From a virus (taxonomy: Duplodnaviria > Heunggongvirae > Uroviricota > Caudoviricetes): a stretch of DNA of 8,653 nt. The position numbers and the translations under genes are program-made. Location: the IMG/VR virus record IMGVR_UViG_2526164666_000018, positions 1 to 8,653 of that record, one strand, 5' to 3'. Under the pieces are notes generated by a model. It was not told the origin of the DNA. It saw only the letters and a list, made by a program, of their open reading frames with translations, and ran no database searches. Shown piece by piece: positions 1-8,653 of the stretch (its first letter is position 1; each line of letters begins with the position of its first letter).

Positions 1-348
1 GTTCCTGATGGTGTGGCGATGACGGGTACCGGTAATCCGTTCCTGATGTCGTACTTCACTCAGACCACTGACGGCAGAGTGAATCTGATGCATCACAGGA
101 AAGCCGGAAACACGAAGCTGGGGGAGTTCGGCGATTACGGTAACGACTGGCAGACGCTGGAGCTGGTGTTCACCGCCGGCAGTGCCACGGTTACTCCGAA
201 ACTGAATGGAGTGGCTGGCCCGGCATTCCAGGTTATAAAAGACAGTCTGACACTGGGACTGAATGCGCTGACGGATGTTACAAAAAATGCAGCGTATGGC
301 GTTGAGATAGAAAGTCTGGTGCTGGAGATAAATGCACCGGCAGCATAA
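1..348 (+). CDS. 3'-terminal part of a larger ORF that begins upstream of the window; product unknown. Its position immediately upstream of the holin is where Stx/lambdoid prophages often carry a nanS-p-type esterase gene, but the sequence itself was not recognised.
   Basis: Frame 1 is open from base 1 to the TAA at 346-348; the track ORF 13..348 is an internal GTG. Translation is protein-like with no low complexity. Product assignment is synteny-based inference only. Confidence 0.5.
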   Translation, partial: VPDGVAMTGTGNPFLMSYFTQTTDGRVNLMHHRKAGNTKLGEFGDYGNDWQTLELVFTAGSATVTPKLNGVAGPAFQVIKDSLTLGLNALTDVTKNAAYGVEIESLVLEINAPAA

Positions 349-349
349 T

Positions 350-650
350 AAAAAAAGAGCCAGCGACTGACCTGAAAGAAGACGCTGGCTAAAAGGCCTT
401 ATATGTTTGTAGAGACTTATTTTTCACAGACAGCAATGATGCCTGTCAATATATTATCAATATGCGGATTGTTTCAGTTACAGATGCTTTATTAAGGAAA
501 AAAACAGCCAGCACTGACTTTCGGTGGAGAGGTGCTGGCTCAGAAGGATAGTTGGATTTCACATGATACTTATGCCTGGCGGTATATTTTCTGACAGACA
601 GTGACGGGTGTTGTCAAGATATTGTGTCATTTATAACCTGAATCAGGGGA
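350..650. repeat. Degenerate tandem duplication (two units of ~150-170 bp), each with an A7 tract, an 8-9 bp stem hairpin and a conserved TTTTC..ACAGACAG...TGTCAA(T/G)ATATT block
   Basis: Unit 1: A-run 350-356, stem AGCCAGCG 358-365 pairing CGCTGGCT 383-390, then ttttcacagacag at 421-433 and tgtcaatatatt from 444. Unit 2: A-run 498-504, stem AGCCAGCAC 506-514 pairing GTGCTGGCT 532-540, then ttttctgacagacag near 587-600 and tgtcaagatatt from 612. Aligned by eye. Confidence 0.5.
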
Positions 651-715
651 GGCCGGAATGTTATCTGGCATTTTTAGCAGAGCCTGAATGCCATAATCAC
701 GGCTCCCGGAGTTGG

Positions 716-750
716 CCGTCAGTGGGTGACACTGGCGGTTTTTTTGTTTT
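716..750 (+). terminator. Candidate rho-independent terminator 46 bp upstream of the S start
   Basis: Stem CCGTCAGTG (716-724) pairs with CACTGGCGG (730-738) with one G-U wobble, loop ggtga, followed by TTTTTTTGTTTTT (739-751). Confidence 0.55.
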
Positions 751-795
751 TCTTTACTTTCATTTTCTGTCGGCGGTGACGGAGACATACATCAG

Positions 796-1002
796 ATGGA
801 AAAAATCACAACAGGTGTGTCATACACCACGTCAGCGGTGGGGACGGGATACTGGTTACTGCAGCTGCTGGACAAAGTCTCTCCGTCCCAGTGGGTGGCA
901 ATAGGTGTGCTGGGGAGTCTGCTGTTTGGCCTGCTGACGTATCTGACAAATCTTTATTTCAAGATTAAAGAAGATAAGCGTAAGGCTGCACGGGGAGAGT
1001 AA
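796..1002 (+). CDS. S: Class II holin (pinholin), phage 21 S / Stx-phage S type
   Basis: 68 aa ([13 protein letters not shown]...[22 protein letters not shown]) with two hydrophobic segments and a charged C-terminus, closely resembling phage 21 / 933W S as I recall it. GGAG at 781-784 precedes the ATG. It is first gene of a lysis cassette. Confidence 0.9.
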
Positions 1003-1006
1003 TTCA

Positions 1007-1558
1007 ATGACTCAAAACTATGAACTGATTGTGAAAGGGATCCGCAATTTTGAGAATAAAGTTACGGTAACCTTAGCGTTACGGGACAAAAAACGCTTTG
1101 ACGGTGAAATTTTTGACCTGGACATCTCGCTGGACCGTGTTGAAGGTGCCGCGCTGGAGTTTTATGAGGCAGCAGCCAGAAGGAGCATCAGACAGGTCTT
1201 CCTGGATGTTGCTGCCGGGTTATGTGAAGGGGGTGAGCAGTCGCCGGAAAAGCGCCCCATAATTTTAGAGGCGCAGAATGTGTGGATAACCTACAAAGGA
1301 AAGCTACCGGGAAGAATTACTGGTTCTCTGAAGACTCCACCGGCGGCATTGCGGTCAGAAAAAGACGATATTGAATCGCCCATTGAAAAACTGGAGGGCA
1401 GAGTCGCTGATCTGAATAAAAAATTGTCGGTGCTGATCCCTTCTGAAGATGAAAAAAAACGCCGCGATGAGCAGTTTGCGGCGTTTTACGATTATTGCAT
1501 TGAGGTTACTCGCAGGAATTTTGTGAAGATTTTTGAGGAGGGTAAATCTCTTCAGTAA
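1007..1558 (+). CDS. Hypothetical 183-aa soluble protein inserted between holin and endolysin; function unknown
   Basis: ATG at 1007 lies 4 nt after the S stop (1000-1002) with GGGGAGAG upstream, suggesting translational coupling to S within the late operon. No TM segment and no recognisable catalytic motif; the C-terminal half is charged and helical-looking (IEKLEGRVADLNKKLSVLI). Confidence 0.7.
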   Translation: MTQNYELIVKGIRNFENKVTVTLALRDKKRFDGEIFDLDISLDRVEGAALEFYEAAARRSIRQVFLDVAAGLCEGGEQSPEKRPIILEAQNVWITYKGKLPGRITGSLKTPPAALRSEKDDIESPIEKLEGRVADLNKKLSVLIPSEDEKKRRDEQFAAFYDYCIEVTRRNFVKIFEEGKSLQ

Positions 1559-1768
1559 GCTTAATGGCGGACTCTGCAATTAATTCTGGAAGGTCCGCAA
1601 GGTCATCTGTCAGTGGGAATGATGAAAAATCGGCGGCAGTTCTGTTAAGAATTGTTTTAACGAACTCCTTTTCATTATCCGGCAACAAGTTGATTAGAGC
1701 CACGACAGCTTGCCTGAGTGCGATTAAATCAGCAAAAGTTTGTTTTGGTAGATTTGGATAATCCATAG
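1506..1768 (-). CDS. Hypothetical 87-aa acidic protein, antisense to and overlapping the 3' end of the 183-aa gene
   Basis: Minus-strand ATG at 1766-1768 preceded by AGAGGTGA (reverse complement of 1774-1781) at good spacing. Product begins MDYPNLPKQTFADLIALRQ and ends QNSCE, stop at 1506-1508. The track's longer 1506..1991 version would run into R and lacks this RBS. Confidence 0.45.
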
Positions 1769-1877
1769 TCACCTCTGTGTTTATCAGATTGACATACCCT
1801 GGCCAGTGCCCACCACTGGCGGGGTGAAGGCTTAACATATCCAGGGATTCGGAACCGATAAATCCTGATAAATATCC

Positions 1878-2411
1878 ATGAACGCAAAAATCAAATACGG
1901 CCTGTCGGCTGCCGTTCTGGCGCTGATTGGTGCAGGGGCGTCTGCGCCTGAAATCCTCGACCAGTTTCTGGATGAAAAGGAAGGTAACCACACCACGGCA
2001 TACCGTGATGGTGCGGGTATCTGGACCATCTGCCGTGGAGCCACCCGGGTGGATGGTAAGCCTGTTATTCCTGGCATGAAACTGACGAAGGAAAAATGCG
2101 ACCAGGTTAACGCTATTGAACGTGATAAGGCGCTGGCATGGGTGGAGAAAAACATCCGGGTGCCGCTGACCGAACCCCAGAAAGCGGGGATCGCGTCATT
2201 CTGTCCGTACAACATTGGCCCCGGTAAGTGCTTCCCGTCGACGTTTTATAAACGAATTAATGCAGGCGATCGAAAAGGTGCCTGTGAGGCGATTCGCTGG
2301 TGGATTAAGGACGGTGGCAGAGACTGCCGTATCCGTTCAAATAATTGCTACGGTCAGGTCTCACGGCGTGACCAGGAGAGCGCGCTGGCGTGCTGGGACA
2401 TCGACAGATAG
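1878..2411 (+). CDS. R: SAR (signal-anchor-release) endolysin, T4-lysozyme-like muramidase, Stx-phage R type
   Basis: 177 aa. N-terminal Gly/Ala-rich weakly hydrophobic segment (YGLSAAVLALIGAGASA) typical of SAR domains, followed by an E-x8-D-x5-T catalytic pattern (EGNHTTAYRDGAGIWT). Closely resembles the R endolysin of Stx2 phages as I recall it. Pairs with the pinholin. Confidence 0.9.
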   Translation: MNAKIKYGLSAAVLALIGAGASAPEILDQFLDEKEGNHTTAYRDGAGIWTICRGATRVDGKPVIPGMKLTKEKCDQVNAIERDKALAWVEKNIRVPLTEPQKAGIASFCPYNIGPGKCFPSTFYKRINAGDRKGACEAIRWWIKDGGRDCRIRSNNCYGQVSRRDQESALACWDIDR

Positions 2412-2502
2412 CAGAATATTTTCCTGAAAAATGACGTTGGCCAACGCGGGTGGATAACACGAAATCCTGAAAACTGGTAAAACCTAAGTGAATAAAAGTA
2501 AA

Positions 2503-2540
2503 AACCCCGTTTGTTGGCAGCAAGCGGGGTTTTGTGTTTT
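2503..2540. terminator. Candidate hairpin/terminator in the R-Rz spacer, plausible on either strand
   Basis: Stem AACCCCG (2503-2509) pairs with CGGGGTT (2525-2531) across a 15-nt loop, followed on + by TTGTGTTTT and preceded by AAAA (a U-run on the minus strand). The large loop lowers confidence. Confidence 0.4.
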
Positions 2541-2746
2541 CTGACCTTGAGCAAGGCAAGGGAGAAATTATGGGTAGGGAGGTACTTTCCCTGTGAGGAA
2601 GTATAAAAGATTCTTTCTGAGGTTGTCCATTATGAAAGGCATTGAAGTGGAGACGCCAGCCAGTCTGGATTTAACAAGAGCGGCAGCTTTTGCCATTCGT
2701 ATTGTGGCCATTGCTGTTCTGGTCTGGGCAATCCGTTGGTGGTGAT

Positions 2747-3214
2747 ATGAACCGTGTTCTGTGCGTGGTTATCATTGTCCTGCTGGTGGCCTGTGGTGCG
2801 CTTAGTCTGGGGCTGAATCATTACCGTGATCACGCCATCATCTACAAAGAGCAGCGCGATAAAAAAGCCAGTGAGCTGGAGCTGGCGAACGCGACAATTA
2901 CTGATATGCAGATACGCCAGCGTGATGTCGCTGCACTTGATGCCAGATACTCGAGGGAATTAGCCGATGCGAGAGCTGAAAATGAAACTCTGCGTGCTGA
3001 TGTTGCCGCTGGTCGTAAGCGCCTGCGGATCAACGCCACCTGCTCCGGTACCGTGCGTGAAGCCACCGGCACCTCCGGCGTGGATAATGCAACCGGCCCC
3101 CGACTGGCAGACACCGCTGAACGGGATTATTTCATCCTCAGAGAACGGCTGATGGCAATGCAGAAGCAACTGGAAGGAGCACAGGAATATATCCGTACCC
3201 AGTGTATACCGTGA
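2747..3214 (+). CDS. Rz: Rz i-spanin (inner-membrane spanin subunit)
   Basis: Translation from the ATG at 2747 (MNRVLCVVIIVLLVACGALSLGLNHYRDHAIIYKEQRDK...) has an N-terminal TM helix and coiled-coil periplasmic domain and is highly similar to lambda Rz. The track ORF 2690..3214 has an N-terminal extension not matching Rz. Confidence 0.9.
   Translation: MNRVLCVVIIVLLVACGALSLGLNHYRDHAIIYKEQRDKKASELELANATITDMQIRQRDVAALDARYSRELADARAENETLRADVAAGRKRLRINATCSGTVREATGTSGVDNATGPRLADTAERDYFILRERLMAMQKQLEGAQEYIRTQCIP
2967..3152 (+). CDS. Rz1: Rz1 o-spanin lipoprotein, embedded in the +1 frame within Rz
   Basis: 61 aa with a lipobox (LPLVVSAC) and a proline-rich mature part (PPAPVPCVKPPAPPAWIMQPAPDWQTPLNGII), fully embedded in Rz as in lambda. 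An alternative start is the Met at 2982. Confidence 0.85.
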   Translation: MRELKMKLCVLMLPLVVSACGSTPPAPVPCVKPPAPPAWIMQPAPDWQTPLNGIISSSENG

Positions 3215-3679
3215 TATTTTGTTATGAAGGTGTTACTGGTAACGTTAAGGTAATTTAACAAAGAGTCAGTTCCGGACTTTATAGTGTGCTCAGTTCATGG
3301 CCAAAAACGATTTCTGTGATAAATATTTTGAATATTATTTACAGGTAAATGGAGTGGGGCACATGGATAGAAATATTACAATAGAGAATGAAGTATATGC
3401 CCGTATTGTATGGGCAGAGAAGGCAAAAACACGGTAATTCCGTGTGTTGCCATGATACCTGATTGGCAGAATAGTTGTTTGGTTTTGAGTATATAGTCAG
3501 CGTTTTTTGTTCAGTAATTGCTCCCTCAAAAAATAATAAAACAAGGTGATTATTTTTGTTTATTATTTAGTTTTTTTTGTGTGTTGTTTTATTGTTTTTG
3601 CGTGGTTTGTTTTTTATTGTTATTTCATTAAGGGAAGGTAAATTCAGGATGGCAGTCTGTAGATAATCGGAGGTCACTT

Positions 3680-3994
3680 ATGCTACATGATCACGTGGCA
3701 GAATGTCTGGAGAAAAAAGGACTGTACCGGAGAGCAGCTGAACGATGGGCAAAAGTGATGGTACAGCTAAGTGATGACCAGAAAAGAAAAGTGGCGGCAC
3801 AGAAACGAGCAGAGTGTTTGCGTAAGGCGCGCCGGACTCCGGTTTCACCGGTGAACCTGACCGAAATAAAACAAGCGGTCAACAGACTACATTCTGAGTT
3901 GGGAATGGGATTTGAAGAGCGGCGGGTATTCCGACGATATAAAGGGACAGGAGAACAGAATACGTCCGGAAACGCGCGGTCAAAAAAATGCTAA
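3680..3994 (+). CDS. Small basic 104-aa protein, tentatively a PerC-family (Pch-like) transcriptional regulator; moron-type cargo
   Basis: GGAGGT at 3669-3674 lies 5 nt before the ATG. The N-terminal motif AECLEKKGLYRRAAERW resembles what I remember of PerC/Pch regulators from EPEC/EHEC; this assignment is from memory and unverified. The gene is flanked by AT-rich DNA and followed by a terminator. Confidence 0.6.
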   Translation: MLHDHVAECLEKKGLYRRAAERWAKVMVQLSDDQKRKVAAQKRAECLRKARRTPVSPVNLTEIKQAVNRLHSELGMGFEERRVFRRYKGTGEQNTSGNARSKKC

Positions 3995-4030
3995 AAAATA
4001 TCTGAGAGAGTTATTGCCTGTTACCATAAG

Positions 4031-4057
4031 AAAAAGCGACTTTAGTGGTCGCTTTTT
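4031..4057. terminator. Bidirectional rho-independent terminator between convergent genes
   Basis: Perfect 10-bp palindrome AAAAAGCGAC (4031-4040) / GTCGCTTTTT (4048-4057) with a 7-nt loop, so a GC stem flanked by A and T tracts, sitting between the ends of the 3680..3994 (+) and 4076..4300 (-) ORFs. Confidence 0.6.
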
Positions 4058-4075
4058 GTGTCATATATAAGTCGT

Positions 4076-4300
4076 TTAAGTAAACCTGTCTGAACAGGTG
4101 CTCTGGTCGTGTTTGTCTTTGTTGGGTACAAATTGAGAATATTTTTCATTAATTAATCTTCTTCTGCAGGCTTCAATAACCCACGCTGAAAAATTACCTG
4201 AACCTTTCAGGTCAAGAGCGATGTTAATTTGTTCAATTATCTGGTTTGGAAATCGGATGTTGCGGGTTGTTGTTCTGCGGGTTCTGTTCTTTGATGACAT
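4076..4300 (-). CDS. Small 74-aa basic protein with a ribbon-helix-helix-like pattern (possibly YlcI/DUF3950-like); putative DNA-binding regulator
   Basis: Minus-strand ORF MSSKNRTRRTTTRNIRFPNQIIEQINIALDLKGSGNFSAWVIEACRRRL...: a basic N-terminus, a short beta-strand-like segment then helices, as in Arc/CopG RHH proteins. Family assignment is from memory only. The RBS is weak. Confidence 0.5.
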   Translation of the reverse strand: MSSKNRTRRTTTRNIRFPNQIIEQINIALDLKGSGNFSAWVIEACRRRLINEKYSQFVPNKDKHDQSTCSDRFT

Positions 4301-4469
4301 AATGTTGCCCCGTATTCAGTGTTGCTGATTTGTATTATCTGAAGTTGCTTTTACGCTAATTTGATGCAGATCAATTAATACGATACCTGCGTAATAATTG
4401 ATTATTTCTCGTGGTTTGATGGCGTACACACATGTCGTGATAAACCTCATGTAGATGATAATTATTATC

Positions 4470-4690
4470 ATTTTCGTGGGTCCTTTCCGGCGATCCGACA
4501 GGTTACGGGGCGGCGACCTCGCGGGTTTTCGCTATTTATGAAAATTTTCCGGGGAAAATCATGTCGGTACTTCTCGAACATAACTATTTGTTTTTCTAAT
4601 ATCGAATCCGTAAAGGTCCGACATGAAAACGCCTGAAAAAGTCATTTTCGGGCACTTTCATGTCGGACCCTGTATTTGTTGTGAGACTGT
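4470..4690 (+). other. cos: Phage cohesive-end site cos (cosQ-cosN-cosB); the 12-nt cohesive end GGGCGGCGACCT is at 4508-4519
   Basis: tcgtgggtcctttccggcgatccgacaggttacg|GGGCGGCGACCT|cgcgggttttcgctatttatgaaaattttccgg matches the lambda right-end/left-end junction almost base for base (from memory). Downstream are three CATGTCGG-type repeats at about 4556-4571, 4614-4632 (inverted) and 4650-4665, taken as cosB R elements, immediately upstream of Nu1. Confidence 0.85.
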
Positions 4691-4693
4691 TTC

Positions 4694-5213
4694 ATGAAGG
4701 TTAATAAAAAGAAACTTGCCGAAATTTTCAAAGTGGATCCGCGAACGATTGAACGCTGGCAGTCTCAGGGGCTCCCTTGCGTCTCCGGAGGTGGTAAGGG
4801 CGTTGAATCTGTATTTGATACCGCCACGGCAATTCAGTGGTATGCGCAGAGGGAAGCTGATATCGAAAATGAAAAACTCCGTAAAGAGGTTGAGGATTAC
4901 AGGGCTGCCAGCGAGGCAGATCTCCAGCCTGGGACTATTGAGTACGAACGCCATCGACTTACGCGTGCGCAGGCTGACGCCCAGGAGCTGAAGAATGCCA
5001 GAGACTCCGCAGAAGTGGTGGAAACCGCATTCTGTACTTTCGTGCTGTCACGGATCGCAGGTGAAATTGCCAGTATTCTTGACGGGATCCCTCTCTCAGT
5101 ACAGCGGCGTTTTCCGGAACTGGAAAACCGACATGTTGATTTCCTGAAACGGGATATTATCAAAGCCATGAACAAAGCAGCCGCGCTGGATGAACTGATA
5201 CCGGGGTTGCTGA

Positions 5214-5239
<26 letters not shown>
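4694..5239 (+). CDS. nu1: Terminase small subunit (gpNu1-like)
   Basis: 181 aa. From about residue 55 onward (IENEKLR...[59 protein letters not shown]...[12 protein letters not shown]) it is near-identical to lambda Nu1 as I recall it; the N-terminal ~50 aa DNA-binding region differs. It sits immediately downstream of cos and overlaps the start of A. Confidence 0.95.
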
Positions 5240-7338
<2,099 letters not shown>

Positions 7339-7342
<4 letters not shown>

Positions 7343-8653
7343 AAATGTCCACCATTCCCACCCTTCTGGGGCCGGACGGCATGACATCGCTGCGTGAATA
7401 TGCCGGTTATCACGGCGGTGGCAGCGGATTTGGTGGGCAGTTGCGGGCGTGGAACCCACCGGGTGAAAGTGTGGATGCAGCCCTGCTGCCCAACTTTACC
7501 CGTGGCAATGCCCGCGCAGACGATCTGGTACGCAATAACGGCTATGCCGCCAACGCCATCCAGTTGCATCAGGATCATATCGTCGGGTCTTTTTTCCGAC
7601 TCAGTCATCGCCCAAGCTGGCGCTATCTGGGCATCGGGGAGGAAGAAGCCCGTGCCTTTTCCCGCGAGGTTGAAGCGGCATGGAAAGAGTTTGCCGAAGA
7701 TGACTGTTGCTGCATTGACGTTGAGCGAAAACGCACGTTTACCATGATGATTCGGGAAGGTGTGGCCATGCACGCCTTTAACGGTGAACTGTTCGTTCAG
7801 GCCACCTGGGATACCCGTCCCTCGCGACTGTTCCGGACACAGTTCCGGATGGTCAGCCCGAAGCGCATCAGCAACCCGAACAATACCGGCGACAGCCGGA
7901 ACTGCCGTGCCGGTGTGCAGATTAATGACAGCGGTGCGGCGCTGGGATATTACGTCAGCGAGGACGGGTATCCTGGCTGGATGCCGCAGAAATGGACATG
8001 GATACCCCGCGAGTTACCCGGCGGTCGTGCTTCGTTCATTCACGTCTTTGAACCCGTGGAGGACGGGCAGACCCGCGGTGCAAATGTGTTTTACAGCGTG
8101 ATGGAGCAGATGAAGATGCTCGACACGCTGCAGAACACGCAGCTGCAGAGCGCCATTGTGAAGGCGATGTATGCCGCCACCATTGAGAGTGAGCTGGATA
8201 CGCAGTCAGCGATGGATTTTATTCTGGGCGCGAACAGTCAGGAGCAGCGGGAAAGGCTGACCGGCTGGATTGGTGAAATTGCCGCGTATTACTCCGCAGC
8301 ACCGGTCCGTCTGGGAGGCGCAAAAGTGCCGCACCTGATGCCGGGGGACTCACTGAACCTGCAGACGGCTCAGGACACGGATAACGGCTACTCCGTGTTT
8401 GAGCAGTCACTGCTGCGGTATATCGCTGCCGGGCTGGGTGTCTCGTATGAGCAGCTTTCCCGGAATTACGCCCAGATGAGCTACTCCACGGCACGGGCCA
8501 GTGCGAACGAGTCGTGGGCGTACTTTATGGGGCGGCGAAAATTCGTCGCATCCCGTCAGGCGAGCCAGATGTTTCTGTGCTGGCTGGAAGAGGCCATCGT
8601 TCGCCGCGTGGTGACGTTACCTTCAAAAGCGCGCTTCAGCTTTCAGGAAGCCC
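7339..8653 (+). CDS. B: Portal protein (gpB-like), 5' portion; the ORF continues past the window end
   Basis: ATG at 7339 overlaps the ancestral W stop (ATGA). Frame 1 is open to the window end (438 codons). Translation MKMSTIPTLLGPDGMTSLREYAGYHGGGSGFGGQLRAWNPPGESVDAALLPNFTRGNARADDLVRNNGYAANAIQLHQDHIVGSFFRLSHRPSWRYLGIGEEEARAF... is near-identical to lambda gpB as recalled. It is absent from the ORF track only because no stop lies in the window. Confidence 0.9.

Follow-up and report, generated by a model that had tools for sequence, protein, structure and literature searches.

The stretch analyzed here (IMG/VR record IMGVR_UViG_2526164666_000018, class Caudoviricetes, positions 1 to 8,653; "the window" denotes all 8,653 nucleotides) is the late region of a lambdoid prophage and matches the chromosome of Escherichia coli 2013C-4538 over its full length at 99.5% identity. 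Its genes for a class II (phage 21 type) holin, S, and an endolysin, R, are separated by 875 bp, as read from the sequence, that hold two convergent open reading frames (ORFs), ORF-A on the late strand and ORF-B on the opposite strand (Table 1). Many genomes of O111:H11 and other enterohemorrhagic E. coli (EHEC) types share this S-R interval at 100% identity. The comparisons reported below lend good support to the view that it consists of a resident late gene, ydfR, into whose 3' part a mobile cassette of about 476 bp is built, comprising the C-terminal extension of ORF-A (hereinafter the tail) and ORF-B.

The layout given in the original prediction, which was made from the sequence alone, largely stands: S and R do lie about 870 bp apart, a 183-amino-acid (aa) frame does begin 4 nt past the S stop, its 3' end does overlap that of a minus-strand frame by 53 bp, and the latter does have a good ribosome-binding site (the Shine-Dalgarno sequence GAGGTG) and an acidic product (pI 4.34). 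The limits of the minus-strand frame, given as 1506..1768 (87 aa), are 2 nt too long, and that range translates with stop codons; because the minus-strand ATG lies at 1766..1764, ORF-B corresponds to 1506..1766 and encodes 86 aa.

Table 1. Features of the S-R interval and its borders (positions are those of the window)
Feature	Position	Strand	Remarks
Class II (phage 21 type) holin S	796..1002	+	Pfam Phage_holin_2_1, E 1.2e-32; Prokaryotic Genome Annotation Pipeline (PGAP): class II holin family protein
ORF-A, 183 aa	1007..1558	+	Starts 4 nt past S stop; GGAG Shine-Dalgarno
YdfR core domain, ORF-A aa 1-77	1007..1237	+	Three beta strands, then a helix, predicted
Linker, ORF-A aa 78-117, SPEKRPIILEAQ.V.ITYKGKLPG.ITGSLK.PP	1238..1357	+	Nearly invariant alignment columns
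Tail, ORF-A aa 118-183	1358..1558	+	Two predicted helices; core E[KQ]KRRDE..A..Y
Block missing in O157 locus	1347..1822 (roughly)		From alignment to S-ydfR(114 aa)-R
ORF-B, 86 aa, acidic	1506..1766	-	phrog_2572, E 3e-50
3' overlap of ORF-A and ORF-B coding regions, opposite strands	1506..1558		53 bp
ORF-B Shine-Dalgarno GAGGTG	1770..1775	-	3 nt before ATG
Hairpin GCCAGTG-CCCAC-CACTGGC in ORF-B leader	1802..1820		7 bp; opposite strand is the late transcript
Candidate weak ORF-B promoter: -35 TTTATC (1857..1862), 17-nt spacer, -10 TATGTT (1834..1839)	1834..1862	-
Weak terminator-like hairpin and T-run	1363..1381	-	125 nt downstream of ORF-B stop
Putative remnant of older ydfR 3' end, RLNISRDSEPINPDKYP*	1826..1881	+	TGA overlaps R start codon (ATGA)
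Endolysin R (phage lysozyme)	1878..2411	+	Pfam Phage_lysozyme, E 3e-25

Gene content of the holin-endolysin interval

Neither product of the interval had been credited with a recognizable motif, but ORF-A is a YdfR (DUF1327) protein, a member of a family that is named, annotated, and normal at exactly this position. Its residues 1 to 112 match Pfam DUF1327 (PF07041) with 142.2 bits against a cutoff of 25 (E value of 5.9e-42), spanning model positions 1 to 92 of 93, and the whole protein matches phrog_2091 end to end. Residues 1 to 77 are 79% identical to YdfR of the K-12 prophage Qin, and an AlphaFold model of this core, with strands at residues 5-14, 18-27, and 34-43 followed by a helix at 50-73 (predicted local distance difference test [pLDDT] values of 62 to 79), has the same arrangement of three strands and a helix as the published description of K-12 YdfR. 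The linker that follows is predicted to be disordered (pLDDT of 26 to 37); it is nearly invariant across the long YdfR forms, and K-12 YdfR has none. RefSeq/PGAP annotates only 1007..1342 of the window copy, as a "YdfR family protein" pseudogene "missing C-terminus."

Genes for YdfR are regularly found at the S-R junction of lambdoid prophages. The order in Qin is essQ-ydfR-rrrQ, that in O157:H7 prophages is S-ydfR(114 aa)-R, and Stx2 phage 86 has a 268-aa YdfR form at the junction; ORF-A, a late-strand frame flanked by a class II holin gene and a lysozyme gene, follows the layout of all three. The protein collection has many YdfR forms, 103 to 296 aa in length, and the YdfR annotation also occurs in phage records. 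The premise of the original prediction that S is followed directly by R is thus correct for 933W, in which R begins 4 nt after S, and is no general rule, since ydfR lies between the two genes in Qin, in O157:H7 prophages, in Stx2 phage 86, and in many others (for Stx1a phages, we infer the same from the size of the S-to-R span). A paper on the architecture of Stx phages contains no mention of ydfR or of additional ORFs (PMC8136144). The prediction had also named, as the outcome that would count against it, a well-characterized family usual at this site, and this holds by half: YdfR is normal at the S-R junction, yet the family is poorly characterized.

Qin YdfR, one of the closest known counterparts, resembles ORF-A in being encoded on the late strand, with a class II holin gene before it and a lysozyme gene after it, and in starting 4 nt past the holin stop. 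It differs in being 103 aa long, with a short terminal helix and the C-terminal sequence ...HHKYL*, in that its stop codon overlaps the start of the lysozyme gene (rrrQ), and in having no antisense gene, whereas ORF-A has 183 aa with a conserved linker and a tail and is separated from R by 319 bp that hold ORF-B.

What separates the two arrangements can be delimited by aligning the window to the O157 S-ydfR114-R locus, whose holin is identical. The two are collinear but for one clean block of approximately 476 bp, which contains the last ~66 codons of ORF-A (the tail), all of ORF-B, and the ORF-B leader. The block is flanked by a 10-bp imperfect direct repeat, CCAC[C/T]GGCGG (1337..1346 and 1813..1822), and has a GC content of 0.41 to 0.44 versus 0.50 to 0.55 in the flanks. 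On this alignment, it is a discrete unit, whether it was inserted in the window or deleted between the repeats in O157. Downstream of it lies the RLNISRDSEPINPDKYP* frame, which, judging from its reading frame and position, is a relic of a ydfR 3' end that was once translationally coupled to R, as in K-12. Salmonella copies of the cassette retain the relic (...DKY[T]*) with adjoining sequence upstream of ORF-B, which suggests that the cassette originated at a ydfR-R junction. The inserted unit is therefore smaller than the two-gene insertion of ORF-A plus ORF-B first proposed, being limited to about 476 bp with the tail and ORF-B; the broader expectation of an additional, recurrent, and uncharacterized cargo inside the lysis cassette proved sound.

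Two observations concern the start of R. No obvious Shine-Dalgarno sequence precedes it (position 1878). The coupling of ydfR and R through an ATGA overlap, as in K-12, is broken by the cassette, and the relic reading frame by itself still ends in that overlap with the R start.

The tail and ORF-B across prophages

To follow the cassette beyond the window, we gathered 96 loci that fall into three lineages and in which ORF-B is 39 to 100% identical. ORF-B is convergent with a tail-ending ORF in every one of them (96/96). Every intact E. coli-type locus has a 3' overlap of 53 nt, and the two other lineages each have one of 59 nt. The pairing and the overlap length are kept at three genomic positions and down to approximately 40% identity. 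This constancy fits the idea, already put forward in the original prediction, of a late gene paired with an antisense gene.

The tail itself is found in several forms: (i) as a free-standing 67-aa gene 3 nt past S (locus L012); (ii) as a free-standing 73-aa gene that overlaps the Rz stop and precedes the gene for the small terminase subunit (Salmonella prophages L091-L094 and L006-L008); (iii) fused, at different junctions, to at least three YdfR subtypes (total lengths of 169, 171, 176, 183, 211, and 243 aa); and (iv) attached to an unrelated N-terminal region encoded downstream of Q-TerB-DUF3927 (L096 and L099). The ORF-A tail is homologous to both free-standing proteins and, with the 73-aa protein, shares 43% identity over 35 aa (E value of 3e-5), including the common core E[KQ]KRRDE..A..Y. 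In all contexts, the open frame of the tail is kept, and every form is placed for late expression, joined to S, ydfR, or Rz by fusion or by tight coupling. That the tail and ORF-B move as a unit within lambdoid lysis cassettes is thus well supported by the comparison of loci, and the module is present in isolated, plaque-forming phages.

The distribution of ORF-B is narrow. An indexed search for its family (phrog_2572) returned proteins of E. coli, Shigella, and Salmonella only, and one scan of 185,579 species-representative genomes found it in E. coli only. Of 5426 complete E. coli genomes, 311 cover at least 80% of the ORF-B segment; the segment further occurs in 80 IMG/VR contigs and in 8 of 50,697 phage records, which amount to 7 distinct isolated phages, and none was found in plasmids. 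An exhaustive HMMER search, which contributed two true homologues, and a profile search uncovered two further lineages with 39 to 56% identity, which retain the length, the Shine-Dalgarno sequence, and the convergent overlap. Giant TPR/CHAT proteins that also scored in HMMER were discarded as homologues, their scores being inflated by repeats.

Such a narrow family, left unannotated by PGAP in some genomes, lacking any significant domain match, and represented by some copies that have no start or stop codon, raises the question of whether ORF-B is a gene at all or a chance antisense frame in a decaying, variable spacer between ydfR and R. We consider the latter extremely unlikely. Length, Shine-Dalgarno sequence, and amino acid pattern persist at 39 to 56% identity in other lineages and at other positions (the ribosome-binding site is kept in all lineages, as AAGGA at the equivalent position in those other than the window's); the ratio of nonsynonymous to synonymous substitution rates (dN/dS) of ORF-B is 0.26 to 0.45 outside the overlap and 0.35 to 0.84 inside the overlap between lineages; variable sites among 14 E. 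coli alleles are enriched at third codon positions (6, 7, and 13 at positions 1, 2, and 3, respectively); and the frame is intact in 73 of 82 E. coli-type loci. For the tail, dN/dS outside the overlap is 0.17 to 0.56 for close pairs and saturated between lineages; within the overlap, the ORF-B frame is better conserved than the tail frame. On these substitution patterns, both the tail and ORF-B look protein coding.

ORF-B is predicted to be a three-helix protein (helices at residues 8-26, 30-48, and 56-74; mean pLDDT of 70), and analysis of its sequence and model revealed no signal peptide, lipobox, or membrane segment. Searches of Pfam, NCBIfam, and PADLOC with the ORF-B family gave nothing significant, and PHROGs gave only a family of unknown function. 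The DUF1823 annotation attached to ORF-B in phage record PV340545 does not hold (13 bits against a cutoff of 25; E value of 0.12), and no literature was found on the ORF-B accession. Similarly, Rfam yielded chance-level matches only, and no tRNAs were detected.

The only similarity of the ORF-B profile in the databases is a collinear, full-length, nonsignificant match among PDB sequences (E value of 0.57) to AcrIIC4, an 88-aa anti-CRISPR with which it has the pattern LP..7x..K.L..6x..FSS in common, and we find it unconvincing and treat it as no more than a lead. Because ORF-B is also small, acidic, helical, and prophage restricted, it might nevertheless be an anti-defense or host-takeover protein, for example, an anti-CRISPR-like inhibitor, whose antisense position is incidental. 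We regard this as very unlikely given the E value, an empty Foldseek search against viral models, and the conserved pairing with the tail, which such a role would leave unexplained. In addition, to our knowledge, neither E. coli nor Salmonella carries type II-C CRISPR, the target of AcrIIC4.

The reading that we favor, tentatively and without calling it probable, is that the cassette is a moron-like sense/antisense pair in which ORF-B would antagonize a late-expressed tail. The most serious competitor, which we think somewhat unlikely, makes ORF-B an independent lysogenic-conversion moron like lambda bor, beneficial to the host and functionally unrelated to the tail; the tail would then act as a C-terminal appendage or as a small late protein in its own right, and the two would travel together only through their overlapping ends. 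Much of what we observe agrees with this: like bor in 933W, ORF-B is an additional, opposite-strand gene in or near the lysis cassette that is present or absent among otherwise collinear prophages (as in the 476-bp difference from the O157 S-ydfR-R locus), and like bor-type lambdoid morons, the block is lower in GC and ORF-B comes with a ribosome-binding site of its own; its family is confined to prophages and narrow; and the 296-aa YdfR form has a degenerate tail without ORF-B. The resemblance to Bor itself does not extend to sequence, fold, or a lipoprotein signal, and ORF-B lacks the signal peptide, lipobox, or membrane segment that would suggest surface conversion; its promoter and terminator are candidates only. 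Moreover, bor-type morons have no second, late-strand coding region overlapping them, and the overlap and pairing of the cassette are kept in three lineages and positions, although a simple overlap would easily be lost. The joint decay of both genes at damaged loci also argues against independence.

Damaged copies occur. In seven loci, the ORF-B start has changed from ATG to ACG, and all seven also carry a 7-aa, one-heptad deletion in the tail; in no locus is ORF-B lost alongside a wild-type tail. In four, a 1-nt indel in the overlap abolishes the ORF-B stop and also disrupts the tail wherever the tail ORF is readable. This joint damage, anecdotal as it is, fits a functional coupling of the two genes. 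The loci concerned are L062-L067, L078, and L041; the 7-aa tail deletion corresponds to a 176-aa ORF-A that is widespread in Shigella, and one locus has it together with an intact ORF-B.

Expression signals and possible modes of action

A standard scan of the window found no sigma-70 promoter for ORF-B. The candidate listed in Table 1 belongs to a hexamer pair (TTTATC-17 nt-TAT[GT][TG]T) that all 96 loci have, with a diverged spacer, 96 to 115 nt ahead of the ORF-B start codon and that occurs only 118 times in 1.3 Mb of locus sequence. The weak terminator-like hairpin downstream of ORF-B was not found in Salmonella-type or type-2 loci. Each lineage has a leader hairpin of its own, and consensus RNA structure over all lineages is weak. 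Salmonella-type leaders have, upstream of ORF-B, a stem of 10 to 11 bp (ATCCGAA.../...TTCGGAT; L091, ~4916..4960; L006, ~1250..1295) that shows compensatory differences between L091 and L006 and encloses a GTGGTGGGACACTG core resembling the window hairpin at 1802..1820.

Under the sense/antisense reading, the tail would be made late only, by translation of the Q-antiterminated pR' transcript that also encodes S, R, and Rz, and ORF-B would be made from its own weak antisense promoter in the lysogen or at an early stage of infection, while the late operon stays silent. The ORF-B protein and its mRNA, which would form an obligatory duplex of at least 53 nt, might restrain the tail as a cognate antagonist or safety catch, perhaps with binding at the protein level. 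At the onset of late transcription, convergent transcription and duplex formation would switch ORF-B off, the tail would become active, and the output would be altered RNA turnover or lysis timing late in infection.

That output is expected from the protein to which the tail is joined. The only functional data found come from a 2026 paper, in which two-hybrid and copurification experiments showed binding of K-12 YdfR to the catalytic, N-terminal half of RNase E, with residues 1 to 72 sufficing for binding and RNA copurifying with the protein (PMC13232886). The 72-aa interaction region has 79% identity in ORF-A, which may, by this resemblance, bind RNase E as well, and the linker could serve as a binding motif.

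Several points weigh against this scheme. Overproduced K-12 YdfR altered only a few transcripts, growth arrest being reported for YegJ alone (PMC13232886), and an output through RNA turnover may thus be subtle. In the overlap, the tail frame has a dN/dS of ~1 to 1.9 between lineages, i.e., no purifying selection, and the degenerate tail of the 296-aa YdfR form persists without any ORF-B. Standard promoter and terminator scans give no more signals than chance would, and these signals are not shared between lineages; the sequence of the candidate promoter recurs upstream of R in prophages that have no ORF-B, which leaves it a candidate only, and the conservation of the hexamer pair may have another cause. 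Finally, the correlated decay of both genes probably stems from a single clade, and their co-inheritance could follow simply from their physical overlap.

If the tail were toxic, alone or when delivered to RNase E or RNA by YdfR, the same pair could be a toxin-antitoxin, abortive-infection, or other defense cargo with ORF-B as the immunity protein or antitoxin, a reading that we consider quite unlikely. It would accommodate a two-gene unit with a small, acidic, helical partner, the strict co-inheritance of tail and ORF-B, and the loss of ORF-B only alongside a tail deletion, and the attachment of the tail to different N-terminal domains loosely recalls polymorphic effector architectures. Convergent genes with a 3' overlap also occur in the type I toxin-antitoxin systems of Bacillus prophages. 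The tail, however, is hydrophilic (grand average of hydropathicity of -0.77; helices modeled at residues 123-143 and 147-181 with low confidence) and shows no hydrophobic, toxin-like, or catalytic features; searches of Pfam, NCBIfam, and PADLOC with its family gave nothing significant, PHROGs gave only families of unknown function, and no toxin or antitoxin domain (Pfam or NCBIfam) was found for the pair. No family in PADLOC-DB v2 matched ORF-A or ORF-B at E values up to 1. The tail gene belongs to the late operon rather than to one that it shares with ORF-B and that is expressed in the lysogen; frameshifted tails occur at several loci, and some loci have lost the ORF-B start; and the isolated phages that carry the pair grow normally on laboratory hosts.

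Two further candidates for the tail were set aside. A match to the PARP1 BRCT domain in a profile search of PDB sequences (E value of 0.005) is unconvincing, being confined to the charged helical tail. The notion of a polymorphic toxin, with a variable YdfR C terminus and a cognate convergent gene, is weakened by the nonhomologous partner in phage 86 and by the lack of any partner of the 296-aa form.

Elsewhere in the window, two regions outside the interval merit description. The gap between a sialate esterase gene (ending at 348) and the holin (349..795) contains a strong intrinsic terminator at 714..740 followed by a T-run. According to a 2026 preprint, small RNAs of prophages named "Pas" (PasA, PasC, and PasD1) map between the esterase gene and the holin-lysozyme operon, and by analogy, a Pas small RNA may be encoded in this gap. 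Relative to NZ_CP027582, the window has an additional A in an A-run at 6929, an insertion that splits the large terminase gene (5214..6971 and 6925..7140), and a 1-nt deletion near 7265; these indels reflect either a defective prophage or homopolymer sequencing errors.

Relation to known systems

Convergent, 3'-overlapping sense/antisense pairs are known from lambda (cII/oop RNA) and from Bacillus (txpA/RatA and bsrG/SR4). The cassette shares with them a prophage location, the convergent arrangement, and transcripts that are necessarily complementary over ~50 to 60 nt at their 3' ends, and it differs in that both partners encode conserved proteins and neither is a small hydrophobic toxin. In particular, type I toxin-antitoxin systems combine a hydrophobic toxin with a noncoding antitoxin RNA, whereas here the tail is hydrophilic and ORF-B is coding.

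Among YdfR proteins, the 268- and 296-aa forms (phrog_1085) have the same N-terminal domain, linker, and S-R position as ORF-A. In Stx2 phage 86 (gp05/gp06; L003, 3215..4345), the extended ydfR is likewise followed by a convergent small ORF, but the YdfR C-terminal domain is a different one, and the convergent 104-aa ORF (phrog_1853) shows no homology to ORF-B and ends clear of ydfR, with no overlap. The YdfR form of 296 aa, found in other versions of the S-R junction (L100-L103), differs from the window in having a degenerate tail and no convergent ORF.

Databases already list both ORF-A ("YdfR family protein"; phrog_2091) and ORF-B ("hypothetical protein"; phrog_2572), and one half of what is described here is therefore a known family at its usual site. 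No publication was found that describes the tail and ORF-B as a mobile, conserved pair with overlapping 3' ends. We consider the cassette to be unstudied prophage accessory (moron) cargo on a YdfR scaffold and no new kind of system. A bolder reading, that it represents an unrecognized class of prophage switch in which a lysogen-expressed antisense partner would restrain a late effector at both the RNA and protein levels, with the fusion to an RNase E-binding YdfR reprogramming RNA decay or lysis timing or excluding superinfecting relatives, strikes us as unlikely.

The S-R junction thus emerges as a variable site in lambdoid prophages, including those of EHEC and the relatives of Stx phages, at which ydfR is furnished with interchangeable C-terminal modules. 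Within it, the target for study narrows to a 476-bp unit, a late tail and its antisense partner, grafted onto a protein family that has recently been shown to bind RNase E. Should the pair be no switch, it would be one more small accessory gene of unknown function; should it be a true switch, control of the lysis cassette would be tied to RNA turnover in the host, and the known types of accessory modules in prophages would grow by a sense/antisense pair in which both strands encode protein.

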